From IMG/VR virus record IMGVR_UViG_2698536559_000013: a stretch of 10,585 nucleotides of DNA; one strand, written 5' to 3'. Under the pieces are notes generated by a model, which made no database searches, was not told the origin of the DNA, and saw nothing but the letters and a program-made list of their open reading frames with translations. Within the stretch, counting starts at the first letter, position 1. Every line of letters begins with the position of its first letter. Source of the DNA: a virus (Duplodnaviria; Heunggongvirae; Uroviricota; Caudoviricetes). Below are positions 22 to 9,857 of the stretch, piece by piece. A program made the position numbers and the translations under genes.

Positions 22-3000
22 TTACGTTTTATCAACCACCAACGCACCATATTTAGACGGCCCAGATGTCTTAACATTCAATGCTCGACCACTTAATGCT
101 TCGCCTGACTTACTTTTCAACAGTAACGTAAATACCAGATTGTTGGTATCGCTCACTACAGCCGAAGATGCAGATGATGTGATCTCCAACACAGCCCCCT
201 TCACATCCGTTACGGCATCAATATTCTGGCTTGCGGTTATGCGTTTCCCATCCAGAACATACTCGGCCTGAATTGTGTACTGGCCTGATTTCGTTGCAGT
301 GAACTGCGTTGTTGCCTGTCCATGAGCATCCAGTTGCAGATTACTACTGGTCAATGATGCTCCCGTCGATGGTGTAATCGTTAAATCCACCTCGCCTGTA
401 AACGCATTGTTATTCGCATCAACCAACTGAATGTTTACTGTTGCGTTTTCACTGCCATCGGCCACAATCTCCTGTTTTGATACACTCATAGTAAGTTCTG
501 CAGAAGCAACATCGGGCACAAAAGTTAACTTAACGCTGCCAGATTCCACGCTATGGGAACCGTCAGTCACCCGTGCAGTCACCGTGTACTCACCAGCTTT
601 CACCGTTGTAAGCGGAACAGAAACATGCCCTGTTGAATCAGTCACGATATTTGTTGGTACAGATAATCCTTCAGATGAGGTGATGAGCTGAATCTTTTGC
701 CCATTGACCGACGCATTCGTATTTGTCAGCTGCACATCTAATACCGCTGCATCCTTACCATTAGCAGGAATATTGGAAATTAAACTACTGCTTTCAGGCG
801 TCAGTGACAGTGAAGCTCCGGTCATATTTGATGCAAAGGTCACTGTTAACTCAGTAGACATCTGAGAACCAGCATGAGCTGTAATCACGTAAGACCCCGG
901 AGTGGAGCTTATTAACGCAAAAATAGCATTACCATTTTCGTCAGTTGAAACAGCATGTTCACCACCAACTTGAGTTATCCCTGCTGGTAAAGACAATGTG
1001 ACAGCATAACCAGGAACAACATTGCCGAAACGGTCCGCAAGGCTTACAGTTACCATATTTCTCTGTTTTCCATCAGCCAATGCATTATTTTGGCTGGCTT
1101 CAAACTGAGAGAATGTAACCTGCTGCCGGTCCTCAATAAAGGTGATTTCTTTCTTAACACCTGAGAAATCATGACTATCAGATTTAACACCGATAGTAAT
1201 CTTACCAGCTCGTTTTGAAGTTACTGTCGCGCTATAGACACCGTCTTTTTCCGTTACAGTCCCAAACTCGACTCCTTCTGCCTGGTTAAGAGCATAAAAG
1301 CTCAGAGTGTTATCACCAGTGATTGCATTTCCTTGTGAATCCTTCACTGCCAGTTGTAGATTGATATTGTAACCAACTACCTGTTCTGCTGGTGCAGCGG
1401 TTAAAACAGCACTGACCTCAGAATCAGGTTCTGTTGCTGCTGTTTGCTTAATACTGAGAGTAAATGTTTTTCCCTGAACTTTTGCAGTTACACGTACCGT
1501 ACCAGCCTGCGAACCAGCAGTCAGAACAGAGTGATATACCCCAGCAGAGATTTCCTCTACCGCGCCTAATGACGGAGCAGTTACCGTTTCACGCTGTCGA
1601 GCACTATTGCTATCTGCTGTAAATTCCACTGACATTTCAATGTCATCAGCCAGTCCGGTTAATGCCTTACCGTTACTATCTTTCAGGCTTAATACTATCG
1701 GATAAGTGGATTGGCTATCAGCAGAGATCGTCGGCGACGAATCTCCATCCAGTGTAAAAGATGAATCCGCTGTCGAGACACCACTATTATTAACGCTGAT
1801 ATTCATAACGGCATAGTTGGAAACATTGCCTCTGTTATCCTGGACTGTGGCTCCAACATTCCACGAATTTACATCTCCGCTTTTATAAGCCGGTAAAGTG
1901 ATCTGCCATGATGTGCCATTTCCACTGATCTTACCGCCAGCCGCAGTGAATGCACTATCATTCCACTGTACAGACTTGATACCACCACTAGCATTGTTGA
2001 TTGTCAGTGTTACAGGGATGATTGATTCCCCCTCCCCCTGAACAGACTCTGGTAAGCTGATTTTCAGTGCATGCTTCTTCTTGTACTCCAGAACAATGTT
2101 GTTATTTCGTTCAACAAAATCATAACGCCGGTTCTGGACTTCTCGCATAACAGCAACATTGTCACTGCTAAGCTGTTCAGCAAGGGAAACGCCCGGGCGA
2201 TAATTAAACTCAACACCAAAGGTTGTATCGTGAACGTTGCTCTGTCCTTGCTTATGCTGTGCAGAAAACTTAATCAGAGGAACTGGTGTATAAGAAATTC
2301 CCCCAGTAACTGCGTAAGGGTTTTCCTGAAGATTATCGCTTCCAAATAACCCGACATTTTTACCATAATATTTTTCAAACTGAATGGATGCCCCTAATTG
2401 CGGATAAGCAGGTAGCCATCCTTCAGCAGAAAAATCCCAGCCATTTGCGGGTCTTTCCAGATAATCATCAATATCCCGACTGTTCTTCCAGTCAGACAAA
2501 CCAAAATAGGTATTTACACCAAGCCTGAAATAATCTCTCCAGTACTCAACCCCAAAACCTGCACGAGAGTGACTGCGACTTAAATCGTAATCATAGAAAA
2601 CATTCGCACCCAACATTGCGTTATCAGGAGTGAAATGACGAATCCCCAAACCAATATTGGTCTGATTTCGGTCATCAGTACGATGTAGTGATGTCTGACT
2701 GAATAGCACATAATCCTGAGTATCCAGCCATGGATATAAAAAGTCGAATGATGAATCCTTCAAGGAAAAAGAATCATCGACATTAAGCTTGATGCGCGCA
2801 TTGCCATATTGTTGCAACCAGTCGACGACCTCTTTTGTCGCCTGAGTTGATAAAGTATTTACAGCAAAACTACTTGCATTATTATTTGCTAGGCTCTGAC
2901 CTGCACTTGCTGCAAATGAGGCCACTTTATTTGCATGCTCATCGCTGGCATAAGTTTGCGTAACATCTTTATTACCAGATGATGCAAAACTGTTTGCTGG

Positions 3001-3102
3001 GATCAAAGAAAGAGAAACTGGAGATAATATCTGGGTAACAATTACCGACCATGTAATCGCGCCAGATGCAGTTTTTTTTAACTTTTTATTCACAGTGGTC
3101 AT
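22..3102 (-). CDS. Inverse autotransporter adhesin (intimin/invasin family), 1026 aa, apparently full length
   Basis: Long uninterrupted minus-strand ORF (stop TAA at 22-24, ATG at 3100-3102). N-terminus is hydrophobic and signal-peptide-like, followed by a sequence typical of the inverse-autotransporter beta-barrel domain (e.g. YDYDLSRSHSRAGFGVEYWRDYFRLGVNTYF, FGVEFNYRPGV). The rest is Ser/Thr/Val/Gly-rich, consistent with bacterial Ig-like (Big) repeat passenger domains. Family call is from recalled sequence features; domain boundaries were not computed. Confidence 0.85.
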   Translation of the reverse strand: MTTVNKKLKKTASGAITWSVIVTQILSPVSLSLIPANSFASSGNKDVTQTYASDEHANKVASFAASAGQSLANNNASSFAVNTLSTQATKEVVDWLQQYGNARIKLNVDDSFSLKDSSFDFLYPWLDTQDYVLFSQTSLHRTDDRNQTNIGLGIRHFTPDNAMLGANVFYDYDLSRSHSRAGFGVEYWRDYFRLGVNTYFGLSDWKNSRDIDDYLERPANGWDFSAEGWLPAYPQLGASIQFEKYYGKNVGLFGSDNLQENPYAVTGGISYTPVPLIKFSAQHKQGQSNVHDTTFGVEFNYRPGVSLAEQLSSDNVAVMREVQNRRYDFVERNNNIVLEYKKKHALKISLPESVQGEGESIIPVTLTINNASGGIKSVQWNDSAFTAAGGKISGNGTSWQITLPAYKSGDVNSWNVGATVQDNRGNVSNYAVMNISVNNSGVSTADSSFTLDGDSSPTISADSQSTYPIVLSLKDSNGKALTGLADDIEMSVEFTADSNSARQRETVTAPSLGAVEEISAGVYHSVLTAGSQAGTVRVTAKVQGKTFTLSIKQTAATEPDSEVSAVLTAAPAEQVVGYNINLQLAVKDSQGNAITGDNTLSFYALNQAEGVEFGTVTEKDGVYSATVTSKRAGKITIGVKSDSHDFSGVKKEITFIEDRQQVTFSQFEASQNNALADGKQRNMVTVSLADRFGNVVPGYAVTLSLPAGITQVGGEHAVSTDENGNAIFALISSTPGSYVITAHAGSQMSTELTVTFASNMTGASLSLTPESSSLISNIPANGKDAAVLDVQLTNTNASVNGQKIQLITSSEGLSVPTNIVTDSTGHVSVPLTTVKAGEYTVTARVTDGSHSVESGSVKLTFVPDVASAELTMSVSKQEIVADGSENATVNIQLVDANNNAFTGEVDLTITPSTGASLTSSNLQLDAHGQATTQFTATKSGQYTIQAEYVLDGKRITASQNIDAVTDVKGAVLEITSSASSAVVSDTNNLVFTLLLKSKSGEALSGRALNVKTSGPSKYGALVVDKT

Positions 3103-4381: not shown

Positions 4382-4911
4382 ATGAGTACTGCACTCGCAA
4401 CGCTGGCAGGGAAGCTGGCTGAACGTGTCGGCATGGATTCTGTCGACCCACAGGAACTGATCACCACTCTTCGCCAGACGGCATTTAAAGGTGATGCCAG
4501 CGATGCGCAGTTCATCGAAAAACCCGCGAAGGCAGAGAAATCACCGGACCGTGGCAGTCGCATCCCAAACGAATGTTGCGGCATAAAGCCATGATTCAGT
4601 GTGCCCGTCTGGCCTTCGGATTTGCTGGTATCTATGACAAGGATGAAGCCGAGCGCATTGTCGAAAATACTGCATACACTGCGGAACGTCAGCCGGAACG
4701 CGACATCACTCCGGTTAACGATGAAACCATGCAGGAGATTAACACTCTGCTGATCGCCCTGGATAAAACATGGGATGACGACTTATTGCCGCTCTGTTCC
4801 CAGATATTTCGCCGCGACATTCGCGCATCGTCAGAACTGACACAGGCCGAAGCAGTGAAAGCTCTTGGATTCCTGAAACAGAAAGCCACTGAGCAGAAGG
4901 TGGCAGCATGA
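4382..4911 (+). pseudogene. bet: bet (Red-beta single-strand annealing protein) disrupted by an internal out-of-frame deletion
   Basis: N-terminal 45 residues (MSTALATLAGKLAERVGMDSVDPQELITTLRQTAFKGDASDAQFI) match lambda Bet, then the frame reads non-Bet sequence to a stop at 4592-4594. The Bet C-terminal part (PKRMLRHKAMIQCARLAFGFAGIYDKDEAERIVENTAYTAERQPERD...[11 protein letters not shown]) continues in the +1 frame to 4911. The breakpoint lies near 4515-4520 (ttcatcg/aaaaacccgcgaagg). Confidence 0.85.
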
Positions 4912-5588
4912 CACCGGACATTATCCTGCAGCGTACCGGGATCGACGTGAGAGCTGTCGAACAGGGGGATGATGCATGGCACAAATTACGGCTCGGCGTC
5001 ATCACCGCTTCAGAAGTTCATAACGTGATAGCAAAGCCCCGATCAGGAAAGAAGTGGCCTGACATGAAAATGTCCTACTTCCACACCCTGCTGGCTGAGG
5101 TTTGCACCGGTGTGGCTCCGGAAGTTAATGCTAAGGCGCTGGCCTGGGGAAAACAGTACGAGAACGACGCCAGAACTCTGTTTGAATTCACTTCCGGCGT
5201 GAATGTTACTGAATCCCCGATCATCTATCGCGACGAAAGTATGCGCACCGCCTGCTCTCCCGATGGTTTATGCAGTGACGGCAATGGCCTTGAGCTGAAA
5301 TGCCCGTTTACCTCCCGGGATTTCATGAAGTTCCGGCTCGGTGGTTTCGAGGCCATAAAGTCGGCTTACATGGCCCAGGTGCAGTACAGCATGTGGGTGA
5401 CGCGAAAAGATGCCTGGTACTTTGCCAACTATGACCCGCGTATGAAGCGTGAAGGACTGCATTATGTCGTGGTTGAGCGGGATGAAAAGTACATGGCGAG
5501 TTTTGACGAGATGGTGCCGGAGTTCATCGAAAAAATGGACGAGGCACTGGCTGAAATTGGTTTTGTATTTGGGGAGCAATGGCGATGA
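4908..5588 (+). CDS. exo: Lambda-type exonuclease (Red-alpha, Exo), 226 aa
   Basis: Full-length ORF whose translation ([65 protein letters not shown]...[15 protein letters not shown]) matches lambda Exo with a few substitutions. ATGA start/stop overlap with bet, as in lambda. Confidence 0.95.
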
Positions 5589-5767
5589 AGCATCCTCACG
5601 ATAATATCCGGGTAGGCGCGATCACTTTCGTCTACTCCGTTACAAAGCGAGGCTGGGTATTTCCCGGCCTTTCTGTTATCCGAAATCCCCTGAAAGCACA
5701 GCGGCTGGCTGAGGAGATAAATAATAAACGGGGAGCTGTATGCACAAAGCATCTCCCGTTGAGTTAA
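5585..5767 (+). CDS. orf60a: Lambda orf60a-like small protein (60 aa from the ATG overlapping the exo stop; an upstream ATG at 5579 would give 62 aa)
   Basis: Translation [57 protein letters not shown]... matches my recollection of lambda orf60a. ATGA overlap with the exo stop. Confidence 0.7.
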
Positions 5768-5931
5768 GAACGAGTATCGAGATGGCACATAGCCTCGCTC
5801 AAATTGGAGTCAGGTTTGTGCCAATACCAGTAGAAACAGACGAAGAATTTCATACGTTAGCCGCATCCCTTTCACAAAAGCTGGAAATGATGGTGGCGAA
5901 AGCAGAAGCAGATGAGAGAGACCAGGTATGA
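5740..5931 (+). CDS. orf63: Lambda orf63-like small protein (63 aa)
   Basis: ORF of exactly 63 codons ([63 protein letters not shown]) in the position of orf63 of the lambda early-left operon. Overlaps the 3' end of orf60a in another frame. Confidence 0.7.
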   Translation: MHKASPVELRTSIEMAHSLAQIGVRFVPIPVETDEEFHTLAASLSQKLEMMVAKAEADERDQV

Positions 5932-6011
5932 CAACCACTGAATGCATTTTTCTGGCAGCGGTCTTCATATTCTGTGTGCTTATGCTTGCCGACATGGGAC
6001 TTGTTCAATGA
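5928..6011 (+). CDS. Candidate 27-aa hydrophobic small protein (MTTTECIFLAAVFIFCVLMLADMGLVQ)
   Basis: Below the ORF-track size cutoff. Its ATG overlaps the orf63 stop as ATGA (5928-5931) and its stop overlaps the orf61 start as ATGA (6008-6011). The core is strongly hydrophobic, consistent with a single transmembrane helix. Confidence 0.4.
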   Translation: MTTTECIFLAAVFIFCVLMLADMGLVQ

Positions 6012-6223
6012 CACCTCAGCAAGAAAACGCCCTTCGCAGCATTGCCCATCTGGCTAATTATGAAATCAAAAAAGCCAGACAGCAGTTTCCGGATAAAAAC
6101 GTCGATGACATTTGCCGTAGCGTACTGAAGAAGCACCGCGAAACGGTAACGCTGATGGGATTCACACCGACTCATTTAAGCCTGGCGATCGGCATGTTAA
6201 ACGGCGTCTTTAAGGAACGGTGA
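6008..6223 (+). CDS. orf61: Lambda orf61-like small protein (71 aa from this ATG)
   Basis: Translation MTPQQENALRSIAHLANYEIKKARQQFPDKNVDDICRSVLKKHRETVTLMGFTPTHLSLAIGMLNGVFKER; position and sequence are consistent with lambda orf61. The track ORF starts at an upstream ATG (5942), but the ATGA-coupled start at 6008 is more plausible. Confidence 0.65.
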   Translation: MTPQQENALRSIAHLANYEIKKARQQFPDKNVDDICRSVLKKHRETVTLMGFTPTHLSLAIGMLNGVFKER

Positions 6224-6225
6224 GC

Positions 6226-6315
6226 ATGAAAAACAAAATCATCATGGAGCTACAGGCTCCTTTTTTATTATTCGCATTCACCCTCAAGCGTATTAACCAA
6301 CAATTCAGGGATTAA
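6226..6315 (+). CDS. Candidate 29-aa small ORF (MKNKIIMELQAPFLLFAFTLKRINQQFRD)
   Basis: Short ORF filling the gap between orf61 and orf73, with aagga about 9 nt upstream of the ATG. No homology recognised; could be non-coding spacer. Confidence 0.2.
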   Translation: MKNKIIMELQAPFLLFAFTLKRINQQFRD

Positions 6316-6321
6316 TGAAAG

Positions 6322-6543
6322 ATGGCAGACATCATTGATTCAGCATCAGAAATTGAAGAATTACAGCGCAACACAGCAATAAAAATGCGCCGCCTGAACC
6401 ACCAGGCTATATCTGCCACTCATTGTTGTGAGTGTGGCGATCCGATAGATGAACGAAGACGTCTGGCCGTTCAGGGTTGTCGGACTTGTGCAAGTTGCCA
6501 GGAAGATCTGGAGCTTATCAGTAAACAGAGAGGTTCGAAGTGA
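6322..6543 (+). CDS. orf73: TraR/DksA-family C4 zinc-finger protein (lambda orf73-like), 73 aa
   Basis: 73-aa ORF with two Cys pairs (CCECGDP...CRTCASC) typical of the TraR/DksA zinc finger. Position matches lambda orf73. Confidence 0.8.
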   Translation: MADIIDSASEIEELQRNTAIKMRRLNHQAISATHCCECGDPIDERRRLAVQGCRTCASCQEDLELISKQRGSK

Positions 6544-7088
6544 GCGAAATTAACTCTCAGGCACTGCGTGAAGCGGCAGAGCAGGCAATGCATGACGACT
6601 GGGGATTTGATGCGGACCTTTTCCATGAGCTGGTAACACCATCGATTGTGCTGGCGCTGCTGGATGAACGGGAATCCCAAAACAAGCGTATTGCAGAACT
6701 GGAGAAAAGCGAAGAGCAACTCATTAACGAGCGTGACCATGCTGAGTCTGCTTTAGATGATATGTACTTTGCAGCAACCGGTAACAGGCCGGAGTGGAGC
6801 AACTGGTTCGGCTTTTCAGATGCTGTCGATGCCGTGGTTGACAGAATTGCTGATTTAGAAGCTAAACAATGCATTGAAGAGATGAGTAAACAAAGTTGCG
6901 AAGCTCGGGAGCGTGATTTGTTTGAATCATGGGTAATGCATTCAATTTGTATTTCCAAATCGACGCTTGAAGGATTGCGCACCGAAACTGGATACCGTAA
7001 CGCGACCTTATCAGGAACAGACTTCAACCGCATGTGGGAACAATGGAAATCTATCCGCGCTGCTGGTATTCGCATCAAAGGAGACTGA
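6540..7088 (+). CDS. ea22: Ea22-like protein, 182 aa (GTG start)
   Basis: 182-codon ORF whose N-terminus MSEINSQALREAAEQAMHDDWGFDADLFHELVTPSIVL matches my recollection of lambda Ea22. GTG start overlaps the orf73 stop (GTGA). Central region is coiled-coil-like and charged. Confidence 0.8.
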   Translation: MSEINSQALREAAEQAMHDDWGFDADLFHELVTPSIVLALLDERESQNKRIAELEKSEEQLINERDHAESALDDMYFAATGNRPEWSNWFGFSDAVDAVVDRIADLEAKQCIEEMSKQSCEARERDLFESWVMHSICISKSTLEGLRTETGYRNATLSGTDFNRMWEQWKSIRAAGIRIKGD

Positions 7089-7089
7089 T

Positions 7090-7299
7090 ATGGCTATTGC
7101 CGCAAGTTATACCATGCATCTCTATTGTGATTGTCGCCAGTGTACGGAAGGTGTATATCCAGTGCCAGACTTCGGTGAGTATATCGGTACGTCATGGTCT
7201 GGTTGTGCAAAAGAGGCCCGTAAAGATGGGTGGCGAATAAGCAAAGACAAAACACGTACTTTTGCGCCCGGGCATAAAGTTTTGAGGATTAACACATGA
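7090..7299 (+). CDS. ea8.5: Ea8.5-like Cys-rich small protein (69 aa from the ATG at 7090)
   Basis: ORF with the Cys motif HLYCDCRQCTEG...SGCAKEARKDGW in the position of lambda ea8.5. SD aaggag immediately upstream of the 7090 ATG. The track's longer version (from 6967) overlaps ea22 out of frame and is less likely. Confidence 0.7.
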   Translation: MAIAASYTMHLYCDCRQCTEGVYPVPDFGEYIGTSWSGCAKEARKDGWRISKDKTRTFAPGHKVLRINT

Positions 7300-8078
7300 C
7301 CACTATTACCAAAGAACGTATTGAATTGTTCATTAAAAATCCGCTTGAAAACGGGCTTACTCGTGGCGAACAAATGGAACTGGCACGAATTGCACTGGCA
7401 TCACTGGAACGCGAACAGATTCGCCACGAGCATGCCAAATGGTCTGACTCCACATTTGGCTGCGTTGGCCCCATTGGTCCACTGAAACACCTCTCAAAAG
7501 AGGCACTGGAAGCCGCAGCCGAACCAGACGATCTTAGCGAGTGGGCTGATATGCAGTTTCTGTTGTGGGATGCACAACGCCGTGCTGGCATCAGCGATGC
7601 TGAAATTAACGTTGCTATGGAAGATAAATTGAAGATCAACATGGAGCGCCAGTGGCCTGAGCCAAAAGATGGTGAGCCTCGCTTGCACATTAAAGAACCC
7701 GGCAACTCTCCGGTAATTCCGGATGGTTTATCCACGGTATGCGCTGAGGCTTATCAGGTTGTAGGAGTTATGGCAGATGCGCTTGGTGTATTCGGTGATG
7801 CAGCAGTACAGAAAGTTCTGGATAACCTGTCACAGCAAAAACTTGTTCACAGAGATGTGCTGCCGTTCTCGCTTCCGGTAACTCCGGATAGTTGGATAAG
7901 CTGTAGTGAGCGAATGCCGAACGACGCGCAGTGGTGCGTAGTGAACACAGAATACGGGTATTACGCGCAATGCTGGTCTGAAGGTCAAGGGTGGCTTGGT
8001 GATGATATCAGCATCCCTGAATGCGATGTAATCAATTGGATGCCACTACCAGAACCGCCGCAGGAGGTGAATCAATGA
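7296..8078 (+). CDS. Phage accessory protein with an N-terminal MazG-like (DUF550, dATP/dGTP pyrophosphohydrolase-type) domain and a C-terminal DUF551-like Cys/Trp-rich domain, 260 aa
   Basis: ATGA overlap with the ea8.5 stop; SD gagga 7 nt upstream. The N-terminal half carries acidic helix motifs (KEALEAAAEPDDLSEWADMQFLLWDAQRRAG) resembling all-alpha NTP pyrophosphohydrolases. The C-terminal half (WISCSERMPNDAQWCVVNTEYGYYAQCWSEGQGWLGDDISIPECDVINWMPLPEPP) resembles DUF551. Domain calls are from memory of motifs, not a profile search. Confidence 0.75.
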   Translation: MTTITKERIELFIKNPLENGLTRGEQMELARIALASLEREQIRHEHAKWSDSTFGCVGPIGPLKHLSKEALEAAAEPDDLSEWADMQFLLWDAQRRAGISDAEINVAMEDKLKINMERQWPEPKDGEPRLHIKEPGNSPVIPDGLSTVCAEAYQVVGVMADALGVFGDAAVQKVLDNLSQQKLVHRDVLPFSLPVTPDSWISCSERMPNDAQWCVVNTEYGYYAQCWSEGQGWLGDDISIPECDVINWMPLPEPPQEVNQ

Positions 8079-8158
8079 GCTGGCCTGAAGCATTCGCAAC
8101 GGTAGGAATTGCAATGGCGGTAGCACTGGTTTTGTATTCAATTTGTCGCTGGGGATAA
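8075..8158 (+). CDS. Candidate 27-aa membrane peptide (MSWPEAFATVGIAMAVALVLYSICRWG)
   Basis: ATGA overlap with the stop of the 260-aa gene; SD-like caggaggtga 5-14 nt upstream. Hydrophobic core consistent with one transmembrane helix. Below the ORF-track cutoff. Confidence 0.4.
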   Translation: MSWPEAFATVGIAMAVALVLYSICRWG

Positions 8159-8279
8159 CGATGATGCTCATGCGGAAATCATCAAAAAAATGGAACTGCT
8201 AACATGATTTAGGTGGGAGCCTGGAAGATGGCTCCACATATCAACATAGATTATTTCAGGATTCCATATTTTAACTAAT

Positions 8280-9164
8280 CTAAGTTCGACTATTTGGGGC
8301 ATTGATATGCTGTAAATGATGCTTAAGCCAATTTCCAGCCGCGCCTGGTGGCGATTTTTTATTCCAAAGCAGATCGATAGAAATTGCCTTTGGCCAGCCA
8401 GGTACGTCGAGCTGAACCAGCGGTTTTTCTGTTGCAAACTCCTCAACCAGAGCACAGGGCAGAGAGCACCAGCCAAATCCCTGTACGGCCATACTGAGTA
8501 ACAACAAATAGTTAGGTGCAGACCAAACCGGTCCACGGGCAATCATCTCCCGGTTATCGATATAAGTATTAAGACGAAGTTCTCGCCATGAATGAAGTTG
8601 TTCCCGCTGGATTGTTTTTTCTGCAGACAGTGGATGTGACGCCGAAACATAAATGCCCATCCACGCTTGCATCGGTAAACGGGTTGAGCCAATATCGGTG
8701 GGGTAGTGTTCCCGAGACTCAATTAAGCCGATCTGCGCTCGTTCTTTTTGCAAAAGATCGATGACATCGACATCCTCACCAATTAAAACCTCTAACTCAG
8801 TATGTGGAAACTGACTATCAAACTGCACCATGATGTCTTCTAATAAGTCAGGGTGTAGGGTATCGGAAAGCACAAACGTCAGACGAGCTTCAGTCTCTCC
8901 GGCAAGCGAAACCGCCACCTCCTCAAGACGTTCACTGGCTGACAAAATCGCATGAACGTAACTCAATACTTTCTTTCCTTCCTCTGTCAGCACAGGTTCT
9001 CGCGAAGAGCGATCGAATAATGATATACCAAGATCGACCTCAAGATTGGCAATTGACGTACTGACTGCGGACTGACTTTTGCGTAATCTTCGTGCCGCAG
9101 CAGAAAAGGAGCCACAGGAAACCGCTTCAACAAATGTACTTAACGCTTCAAGTGAGTAACGCAT
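8280..9164 (-). CDS. LysR-family transcriptional regulator, 294 aa
   Basis: N-terminal HTH typical of LysR-type regulators (LEALSTFVEAVSCGSFSAAARRLRKSQSAVSTSIANLEVDLGISLFDRSSREPVLTEEG) followed by a co-inducer-binding-type domain. Transcribed divergently from the adjacent transporter gene. Confidence 0.9.
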   Translation of the reverse strand: MRYSLEALSTFVEAVSCGSFSAAARRLRKSQSAVSTSIANLEVDLGISLFDRSSREPVLTEEGKKVLSYVHAILSASERLEEVAVSLAGETEARLTFVLSDTLHPDLLEDIMVQFDSQFPHTELEVLIGEDVDVIDLLQKERAQIGLIESREHYPTDIGSTRLPMQAWMGIYVSASHPLSAEKTIQREQLHSWRELRLNTYIDNREMIARGPVWSAPNYLLLLSMAVQGFGWCSLPCALVEEFATEKPLVQLDVPGWPKAISIDLLWNKKSPPGAAGNWLKHHLQHINAPNSRT

Positions 9165-9267
9165 AATCTATCAATTTTTTCGATGGTATCTATCTTTTAT
9201 ATATCACATAAATCGATAAAAATCTCACAACTCCATAACGCGGTCGAAACTGTAAGAAAGGTAAGTT
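9165..9267. promoter_or_regulatory. Divergent intergenic control region between the LysR gene and the PACE transporter gene
   Basis: 103-bp AT-rich spacer between divergent start codons. Contains an imperfect inverted repeat, tttttcgat (9176-9184) and atcgataaaaa (9213-9223), as might serve a LysR-type operator. No promoter elements were verified. Confidence 0.4.
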
Positions 9268-9726
9268 ATGCAACATAATGCGATTCAACGCAGATCGTTA
9301 CTTGAGCGTATTTTTCACGCTATTTGCTTTGAAGGAATTGCCACTGCGATTCTGGCCCCCACCACAGCATGGTTAATGCAGCGAACTATACTCGAAATGG
9401 GCGGGATGACTATCTTGTTGGCTTCAACTGCAATGATCTGGAATATCATCTATAACATGCTATTTGATCGCTACTGGCCTGCTCATCAGGTAAAACGAAC
9501 TGCAAAAGTTCGTGCATTCCATGCTTTGGGCTTTGAAAGTGGATTTATCGCGATCGGCGTCATTATGGTGTCCTGGATTCTGAGCGTCAGTCTGTTACAG
9601 GCTTTTACACTAGAGATAGGATTCTTCCTTTTCTTTCTACCATATACCATGTTCTACAATTGGGCCTATGACAGCTTACGTTTACGTGTTGTGAAACAGC
9701 ATCAACAACGTATGCTTGCCAGATAA
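9268..9726 (+). CDS. PACE-family (AceI-like) small efflux transporter, 152 aa
   Basis: Two tandem repeats each beginning with the R-x-x-h-A-x-x-F-E motif (ERIFHAICFEG and VRAFHALGFESG), plus WNxxYNxxFD-like motifs (MIWNIIYNMLFD, MFYNWAYD) and four predicted hydrophobic helices. Divergent LysR partner, as in aceR-aceI. Confidence 0.8.
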   Translation: MQHNAIQRRSLLERIFHAICFEGIATAILAPTTAWLMQRTILEMGGMTILLASTAMIWNIIYNMLFDRYWPAHQVKRTAKVRAFHALGFESGFIAIGVIMVSWILSVSLLQAFTLEIGFFLFFLPYTMFYNWAYDSLRLRVVKQHQQRMLAR

Positions 9727-9800
9727 TGTTTTCCCAGGGGAGTAATGAAAATCGCGCAATAATTTTCGATATCCATACTGTACCCCCACCGACTTAACAT

Positions 9801-9827
9801 CCCCGCCCTCGCGGGGATTTCTTTTAT
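9801..9827 (+). terminator. Rho-independent terminator downstream of the PACE gene
   Basis: GC-rich hairpin ccccgc-cctc-gcgggg (9801-9816) followed by a T-rich tract atttcttttat. Confidence 0.6.
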
Positions 9828-9830
9828 CTG

Positions 9831-9857
9831 AACTCGCTACGGCGAGTTTTGTTTTAT
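9831..9857 (+). terminator. Second tandem hairpin plus T-tract; possible back-up terminator
   Basis: aactcgc-tacg-gcgagtt stem-loop (9831-9848) followed by ttgttttat. Confidence 0.4.

Follow-up and report, generated by a model that had tools for sequence, protein, structure and literature searches.

The 10,585-nt stretch of DNA analyzed here (the window) is a defective lambdoid prophage of E. coli and carries the pL-distal exo-xis operon on its plus strand. Its genes from exo to ea22 are best read as a coupled chain of cistrons in which two micro-ORFs, denoted ORF1 and ORF2, are links; the peptide of ORF1 would be maintained by selection and that of ORF2 only weakly constrained. To this reading as a whole, which is drawn from sequence comparison, a probability of about 0.55 is assigned. 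ORF1 itself is probably an overlooked gene for a hydrophobic peptide of 27 amino acids, which appears to be undescribed in the literature searched and unannotated in the phage and RefSeq records sampled. The features concerned are compiled in Table 1.

Table 1. Features of the exo-ea22 interval, in coordinates of the window.
Feature	Position	Strand	Remarks
exo	4908-5588	+	start overlaps bet at 4908 by 4 nt
orf60a (DUF1317)	5585-5767	+	ATG overlaps exo stop as ATGA; PGAP CDS at equivalent position
predicted terminator t1	5649-5681	+	inside orf60a CDS; hairpin scan; Bloch 2014, Table 4
orf63 (DUF1382)	5740-5931	+	upstream partner of ORF1; stop 5929-5931
ORF1	5928-6011	+	27-codon hydrophobic micro-ORF; ATGA overlap at each end
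orf61 homologue, full length, 71 aa	6008-6223	+	start ATG/GTG at 6008
ORF2	6220-6315	+	29 codons from ATG 6226, or 31 from GTG/ATG 6220
predicted terminator t2	6246-6266	+	hairpin GGAGCTACAGGCTCC + T6; within ORF2, codons 7-14
orf73 (TraR/DksA-like zinc finger)	6322-6543	+	downstream partner of ORF2, 6 nt past ORF2 stop
ea22	6540-7088	+	start overlaps orf73 by 4 nt (6540)

Overlaps of 4 nt join bet to exo, exo to orf60a, orf63 to ORF1, ORF1 to orf61, orf61 to ORF2 and orf73 to ea22, so that the segment from exo to ea22 forms a chain of cistrons nearly without gaps. From this anatomy and from established knowledge of such junctions, ribosomes would be expected to pass between the cistrons by termination-reinitiation at the overlaps. 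Those ending at the UGA of orf63 would restart at the overlapping AUG 5928 and synthesize the 27-residue hydrophobic peptide; having reached the UGA of ORF1, which overlaps the AUG or GUG of the 71-aa orf61, they would end and restart there once more. ORF1 would then serve a double role, as a ribosome relay from orf63 to orf61 and as the template of a selected hydrophobic peptide, which would most likely enter the inner membrane and act on a membrane component of the host or the phage. Translation of ORF2 would be coupled as well, either through the [A/G]UGA lying over the orf61 stop or by a start at AUG 6226 with its AAGGA, and would relay ribosomes towards orf73 and cover the t2 hairpin.

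The exo-xis block is 97-99% identical to that of phages lambda, 434, 21 and many Stx phages and is found in 57% of complete E. coli genomes. Its genes have been reported in the published literature to affect the lysis-lysogeny decision and prophage induction, and their gene-by-gene dissection is ongoing. Positions 4519-9849 of the window are 100% identical to E. coli 2015C-4136CT1, in which the region is a prophage remnant. The replication P gene on the minus strand is truncated, N and pL are missing, and an inverse-autotransporter pseudogene lies at 22-3102. Relative to the otherwise identical NZ_CP027550.1, bet (4382-4911) harbors an internal deletion of 257 bp with its junction near 4517-4519, by which the gene is split into ORFs of 70 and 112 aa.

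For comparison, 357 loci were gathered from phage records, IMG/VR and metagenomes. The interval 5928-6324 is spanned by 309 of them, and 305 loci (143 haplotypes) were left once low-quality assemblies had been dropped. A scan of genome contigs was discarded as a source of more loci, the matches being mostly lambda contamination in unrelated genomes. Seemingly divergent 71-aa proteins (48-76% identity) proved to derive from low-coverage assemblies with indels, their DNA being otherwise ~95% identical, and thus contribute no added divergence. In the polymorphism test each variant allele was counted once, as synonymous (S) or non-synonymous (N), using alleles present in at least 2 loci of the 305.

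ORF1 extends from ATG 5928-5930 to TGA 6009-6011 and encodes the peptide MTTTECIFLAAVFIFCVLMLADMGLVQ. The tetranucleotide ATGA at 5928-5931 contains the stop codon of orf63, and a second ATGA at 6008-6011 contains the ATG of the next gene. As estimated by shuffling, the chance of an open frame that connects two genes through an ATGA on either side is ~0.008. The initial annotation of this DNA had proposed a 27-codon hydrophobic ORF at exactly this place, bracketed by ATGA overlaps with orf63 and orf61 and coupled in the same manner as the known genes of the operon. Its coordinates and both overlaps were confirmed, the same 4-nt arrangement recurs at bet/exo, exo/orf60a and orf73/ea22, and orf63 is indeed the upstream partner; the downstream partner, however, is the full-length 71-aa form and not the 61-aa orf61 of lambda. 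Fusion of orf63 to ORF1 through -1 frameshifting was considered and rejected, as the in-frame TGA 5913-5915 leaves only 12 nt and a slippery site is absent.

ORF1 carries no annotation in any of 40 sampled RefSeq E. coli rows or 40 sampled phage rows, and no description was found in the literature searched; a few GenBank WGS records do call it, as a hypothetical protein. With 84 nt it falls under the 90-nt minimum of Prodigal, and gene callers miss it. Its counterpart in phage lambda (31008-30925) lies under the annotated orf61, hence ribosome footprints in this region would not be credited to ORF1. Neither the ORF1 nor the ORF2 peptide is contained in the small-ORF supplements for EHEC Sakai.

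The second micro-ORF, proposed initially as a 29-codon frame at 6226-6315 filling the gap before orf73, is present as described, ends with TAA 6313-6315 and possesses an additional upstream start at 6220. This codon is GTG in the window and ATG in lambda and 126 of the 309 loci, yields a 31-aa form and overlaps the orf61 stop as [G/A]TGA. ORF2 was initially regarded as unannotated like ORF1, which does not hold: it is an annotated CDS in 434, 21, lambda PV340536, 4A7 (RefSeq), 2E9 and SfI and is abundant in protein collections, with no PGAP call in 40 sampled E. coli genomes. ORF2 is thus already known as a gene and adds nothing new in that respect. According to a review (PMC8614690), ribosome profiling of lambda (Liu et al. 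2013) reported ORFs of 7 and 31 aa in the region. Since no free-standing ATG-ORF of 31 aa other than the long form of ORF2, MNMKSKIIRELQAPFLLFAFTLKRINQQFRD, lies between exo and ea22 in lambda, this form matches the "orf2313" of that account in length and location and would be identical with it in position and sequence; ORF2 of the window differs by its GTG upstream start and the N3/M7 allele. A 7-codon ORF, MTFAVAY (6105-6128), located ~10 nt past the stop of the frameshifted lambda orf61, could be the 7-aa "orf2311" reported from the same ribosome profiling; an alternative candidate is MKDGRHH, starting from the equivalent of window position 6315.

ORF2 is probably translated, and its peptide weakly constrained. 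The polymorphism test gave S = 7 and N = 10 with one stop-related change (P = 0.18), and common alleles alter residues (S3N, R7M, T19I). The peptide has no family or structure match in Pfam, NCBIfam, PHROGs or PDB and does not resemble a transmembrane segment, its best 19-residue Kyte-Doolittle values being 0.97-1.31 and its Hessa sums +8 to +11.

A somewhat unlikely alternative is that ORF2 is incidental, the orf61-orf73 spacer carrying terminator t2 and possibly a weak promoter of orf73, with the open frame and the PFLLF stretch, which is a translated T-run, as by-products. The hairpin consists of a 6-bp stem with four G-C pairs and a 3-nt loop and is followed by T6, that is, it has both the hairpin and the U-tract of an intrinsic terminator. 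Hairpin and T6 are identical in 303 of the 309 loci and the four-fold degenerate sites in the hairpin never vary, which makes the terminator the best-supported selected element of the ORF2 interval; folding of the region overall is unexceptional (z = -1.0), and only the hairpin stands out. Both t2 (ARNold, -8.3 kcal/mol) and a promoter p1 were predicted in this interval by Bloch 2014, where lower levels of orf73, ea22 and ea8.5 mRNA were measured downstream of t2 in lambda. Together with the non-significant synonymous excess and the lack of transmembrane character, these observations speak for a plain spacer. Several points speak against it: by shuffling, an ATG-ORF that has 29 codons or more and closes within the 98-nt gap has a chance of ~0.003, ATG 6226 is invariant with an AAGGA Shine-Dalgarno sequence 9 nt upstream, 307 of 309 loci show the overlap of the upstream [A/G]TG with the stop of orf61, and the frame is still open in a divergent copy (L008, see below). 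The 31-aa ORF reported from ribosome profiling, as relayed in the review, points in the same direction.

The identification of t2 with the classical terminator tL3 was rejected on the basis of the insert of pKD46 (lambda 31088-33241); tL3 more likely corresponds to the orf60a hairpin. The latter, t1, comprises a 9-bp stem and a T-rich tail and is presumably the tL3 present in pKD46 and CRIM vectors.

Returning to ORF1 as a link of the coupled chain, its frame is intact as a 27-codon ATG-ORF in ~301 of 309 loci and its peptide identical in 255; of 5426 complete E. coli genomes, 3077 contain the ORF, and the copies in such genomes number ~4100. In two loci the ATG is replaced by ATA through a change at 5930 that leaves orf63 with TAA as its stop, and in three others Q27 is changed to a stop, whereby the last codon is lost and a TAATG junction is kept. 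In L008, a decayed prophage of Escherichia sp. E1V33, the region is 14 nt shorter, ORF1 is cut to at most 17 codons and the ATGA start enters the frame of the 93-aa Orf61 discussed below. Synonymous changes are in clear excess in the ORF1 frame and not in the two other sense frames (Table 2), with similar results for ORF1 at thresholds of 1 and 4 loci.

Table 2. Polymorphism test by reading frame; P-values are approximate, since the homologues are all at least 90% identical and linked by descent and recombination.
Frame	S	N	Stop-related	Expected synonymous fraction	P
ORF1	12	8	1	0.26	0.0024
ORF1 region, 93-aa frame (5931-6007)	5	14	2	0.26	0.69
ORF1 region, third sense frame	5	16	0	0.26	0.69
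ORF1 region, antisense frame sharing third positions	10	11	0	0.23	0.011
Adjacent 71-aa gene (positive control)	20	15	0	0.27	0.00015

ORF1 has a crude omega of ~0.26, the 71-aa gene one of 0.28. Among the variants of ORF1, the five most frequent (in 96, 74, 18, 16 and 14 loci) are without exception synonymous. At each of two sites, 5939 and 5957, three or four alleles occur: T, G and A at 5939 all specify Thr in ORF1 and give TGA, GGA and AGA (stop, Gly, Arg) in the 93-aa frame, and the alleles at 5957 are all synonymous in ORF1 and encode Ser, Cys, Gly or Arg in the other frame. The antisense frame shares third codon positions with ORF1, so that an echo of the sense signal is expected there. 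A 61-codon antisense ORF (5810-5995, minus strand), which overlaps the 3' end of orf63 as well as ORF1, displays nothing beyond a weaker echo of the synonymous excess and is therefore probably not a gene. Judged by these patterns the ORF1 frame looks to be under purifying selection, and selection on the peptide sequence would mark it as a gene product beyond a mere relay. Comparison of synonymous and non-synonymous changes, which the initial annotation had suggested for both micro-ORFs, hence favors coding for ORF1 (P = 0.0024) and leaves the constraint on ORF2 short of significance (P = 0.18); the frames, whose conservation was likewise to be compared, are kept in both (~304 of 309 loci for ORF2).

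These data also bear on the unlikely case that ORF1 is translated merely as a coupling relay from orf63 to orf61 over the 76-nt gap, its peptide being functionless. The ATGA overlap at each end is what such a relay would look like, the peptide is without homologues or family beyond this block, and phages of the SfI type express the 71-aa gene without ORF1, using a GAGG Shine-Dalgarno sequence of their own. A relay, however, needs only an open frame; the synonymous excess with an omega equal to that of the adjacent gene, the purely synonymous nature of the commonest variants and the invariance of the hydrophobic core in 255 of 309 loci go beyond this need and are accounted for by the reading in which the peptide is selected.

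The ORF1 peptide is predicted to be transmembrane-like with a single helix. Its best 19-residue Kyte-Doolittle window scores 2.33-2.57, within the top ~1% of the short open segments of the window, and its 19-residue Hessa sum lies between -0.75 and +0.3; by both scales the hydrophobic segment is long enough to span a bilayer. Small membrane peptides, which might act as inhibitors of host targets, had been anticipated initially for both ORFs; membrane character agrees with the strong hydrophobicity of ORF1 and does not apply to ORF2. Flanking basic residues as expected from the positive-inside rule are absent, as ORF1 contains no Lys or Arg and its charged residues are just E5 and D21. No match to the peptide was obtained in PDB, Pfam, NCBIfam or PHROGs, and tblastn against 50,697 phage records returned only copies at least 90% identical and no distant homologues. 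At the RNA level, Rfam gave no match in 5400-6900, and folding of the ORF1 region is not more stable than that of shuffled controls (z = +1.06).

The junction upstream of ORF1 is kept when the neighboring gene is exchanged. In 35 loci a gene for a 185-aa Dam-like DNA methyltransferase takes the place of orf63; the ATGA is exactly the point from which these loci are homologous to the window, the TGA of the Dam-like gene overlaps the ORF1 ATG, and a GGGAGG Shine-Dalgarno sequence is located 5 nt upstream of this ATG. The end of the Dam-like gene (...EAA) and its GGAGGC(N)GC ATGACA junction are similar to their counterparts in a third module, that of L008, suggesting that a boundary sequence is conserved at these module junctions. 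Behind divergent orf63 homologues (76-83% identity) lie Ea22-like genes or an unrelated 71-aa gene, whose start always shares a GTGA or ATGA with the stop of orf63; the ORF1 start codon thus occupies the regular start site of the gene following orf63. These divergent homologues reside on contigs of 50-100 kb from E. coli, Shigella and Salmonella and adjoin DUF968, Ea22-like and DNA polymerase III theta-like genes. The 71-aa gene of SfI and L115 directly follows a gene of 251 aa, homology starts near 6026 and the same ATG is used; ORF1 is accordingly dispensable for the 71-aa gene.

The gene downstream of ORF1 requires reassessment as well. Compared with the window, lambda contains an extra A in the A-run 6061-6067, found in 19 of 309 loci, all of them lambda-like, and a T-to-G exchange at 5939 that abolishes an in-frame TGA. 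As a consequence of both changes, the annotated orf61 of lambda is a 61-aa frame whose start lies within orf63; by comparison with its wild relatives, it is a frameshifted and mis-started version of the 71-aa gene. In the relatives the product has 71 aa when read from ATG 6008 and would have 93 aa if the frame were extended up to ATG 5942, and as the 93-aa frame overlaps ORF1 out of frame, the two readings compete. The 71-aa form is called by PGAP, CPT and RefSeq; a 93-aa Orf61 is annotated in 933W, phi24B and VT1-Sakai. The start at 6008 alternates between ATG and GTG among loci, and this alternation, along with the use of the same ATG in SfI and L115, supports 6008 as the true orf61 start. 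In all likelihood, then, orf61 starts at the ATG or GTG of 6008, and the 93-aa form is probably over-extended by 22 untranslated N-terminal residues. Many 71-aa copies bear the PGAP label "cell division protein ZapA"; the Pfam ZapA match (E = 0.18, 12.5 bits) stays below the cut-off of 23.8 and NCBIfam gives no match, so that the name looks unsupported.

That the ORF1 interval is no separate gene but encodes the N-terminal 22 residues of a 93-aa Orf61, or is an untranslated leader, is very doubtful: the frame starting with ATG 5942 is open, has been annotated in numerous records and is the basis of published models, the ATGA start of L008 with its GGAGG Shine-Dalgarno sequence sits in this frame and PHROG 303 contains the extension, yet the frame is neutral over 5931-6007 and its extension 5942-6007 does not behave as coding sequence, the annotation pipelines and the start codon alternation favor 6008, SfI and L115 use the 6008 ATG after an unrelated gene, and the published AlphaFold fold of Orf61 covers residues 24-93 only.

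If ORF1 is a selected link of the chain, the exo-xis literature needs re-reading with respect to its gene map, the models of Orf61 and the phenotypes of orf61 deletions. Published Orf61 models and orf61 deletions are based on the 93-aa ORF; the deletions probably remove ORF1 too, and phenotypes credited to orf61 may therefore be confounded. The overlap of ORF2 with a conserved terminator at the border between pro-lytic and pro-lysogenic genes offers a testable regulatory idea. A bolder version, to which we give little credence, combines both points into two functional elements so far hidden in the best-studied phage, an ORF1 membrane peptide behind part of the orf61 pro-lytic phenotype and a translation-dependent switch formed by ORF2 and t2. 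In that event, part of the pro-lytic phenotype of the published deletions would stem from the loss of ORF1; tight ribosome coupling on ORF2 would permit readthrough into the pro-lysogenic orf73 and ea22, and uncoupling would let transcription end after the pro-lytic orf60a, orf63 and orf61.

Small hydrophobic proteins encoded inside operons are well known from KdpF (29 aa), CydX (37 aa) and AcrZ (49 aa). Like these, ORF1 encodes fewer than 50 aa with one hydrophobic helix, is embedded in an operon, is predicted to be co-translated and is missed by gene callers. In contrast to them, it shows no sequence similarity to the three proteins, lacks flanking basic residues and has no neighbor that is a membrane-complex partner, Orf63 and Orf61 being described in the literature as small soluble helical proteins. 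In size and hydrophobicity ORF1 is also comparable to the type I toxins Ibs, ShoB, DinQ and TisB. Unlike these it has no promoter of its own, antisense RNA or Rfam match, forms part of a coupled polycistronic series, and occurs in 57% of E. coli genomes with no partner antitoxin in sight. ORF2 recalls the leader-ORF attenuators of the pyrBI/pyrE type, in which an ORF runs through a terminator hairpin: its codons 7-14 encode the t2 hairpin and U-tract, hence a closely trailing ribosome would block hairpin formation. It differs from the attenuators in its mid-operon position instead of the 5' end, and no regulatory codons or pause signal were identified. The closest parallel for the chain as a whole is termination-reinitiation coupling at AUGA/GUGA overlaps, which is established in bacterial operons and with which the 4-nt overlaps along the entire bet-ea22 chain would agree.
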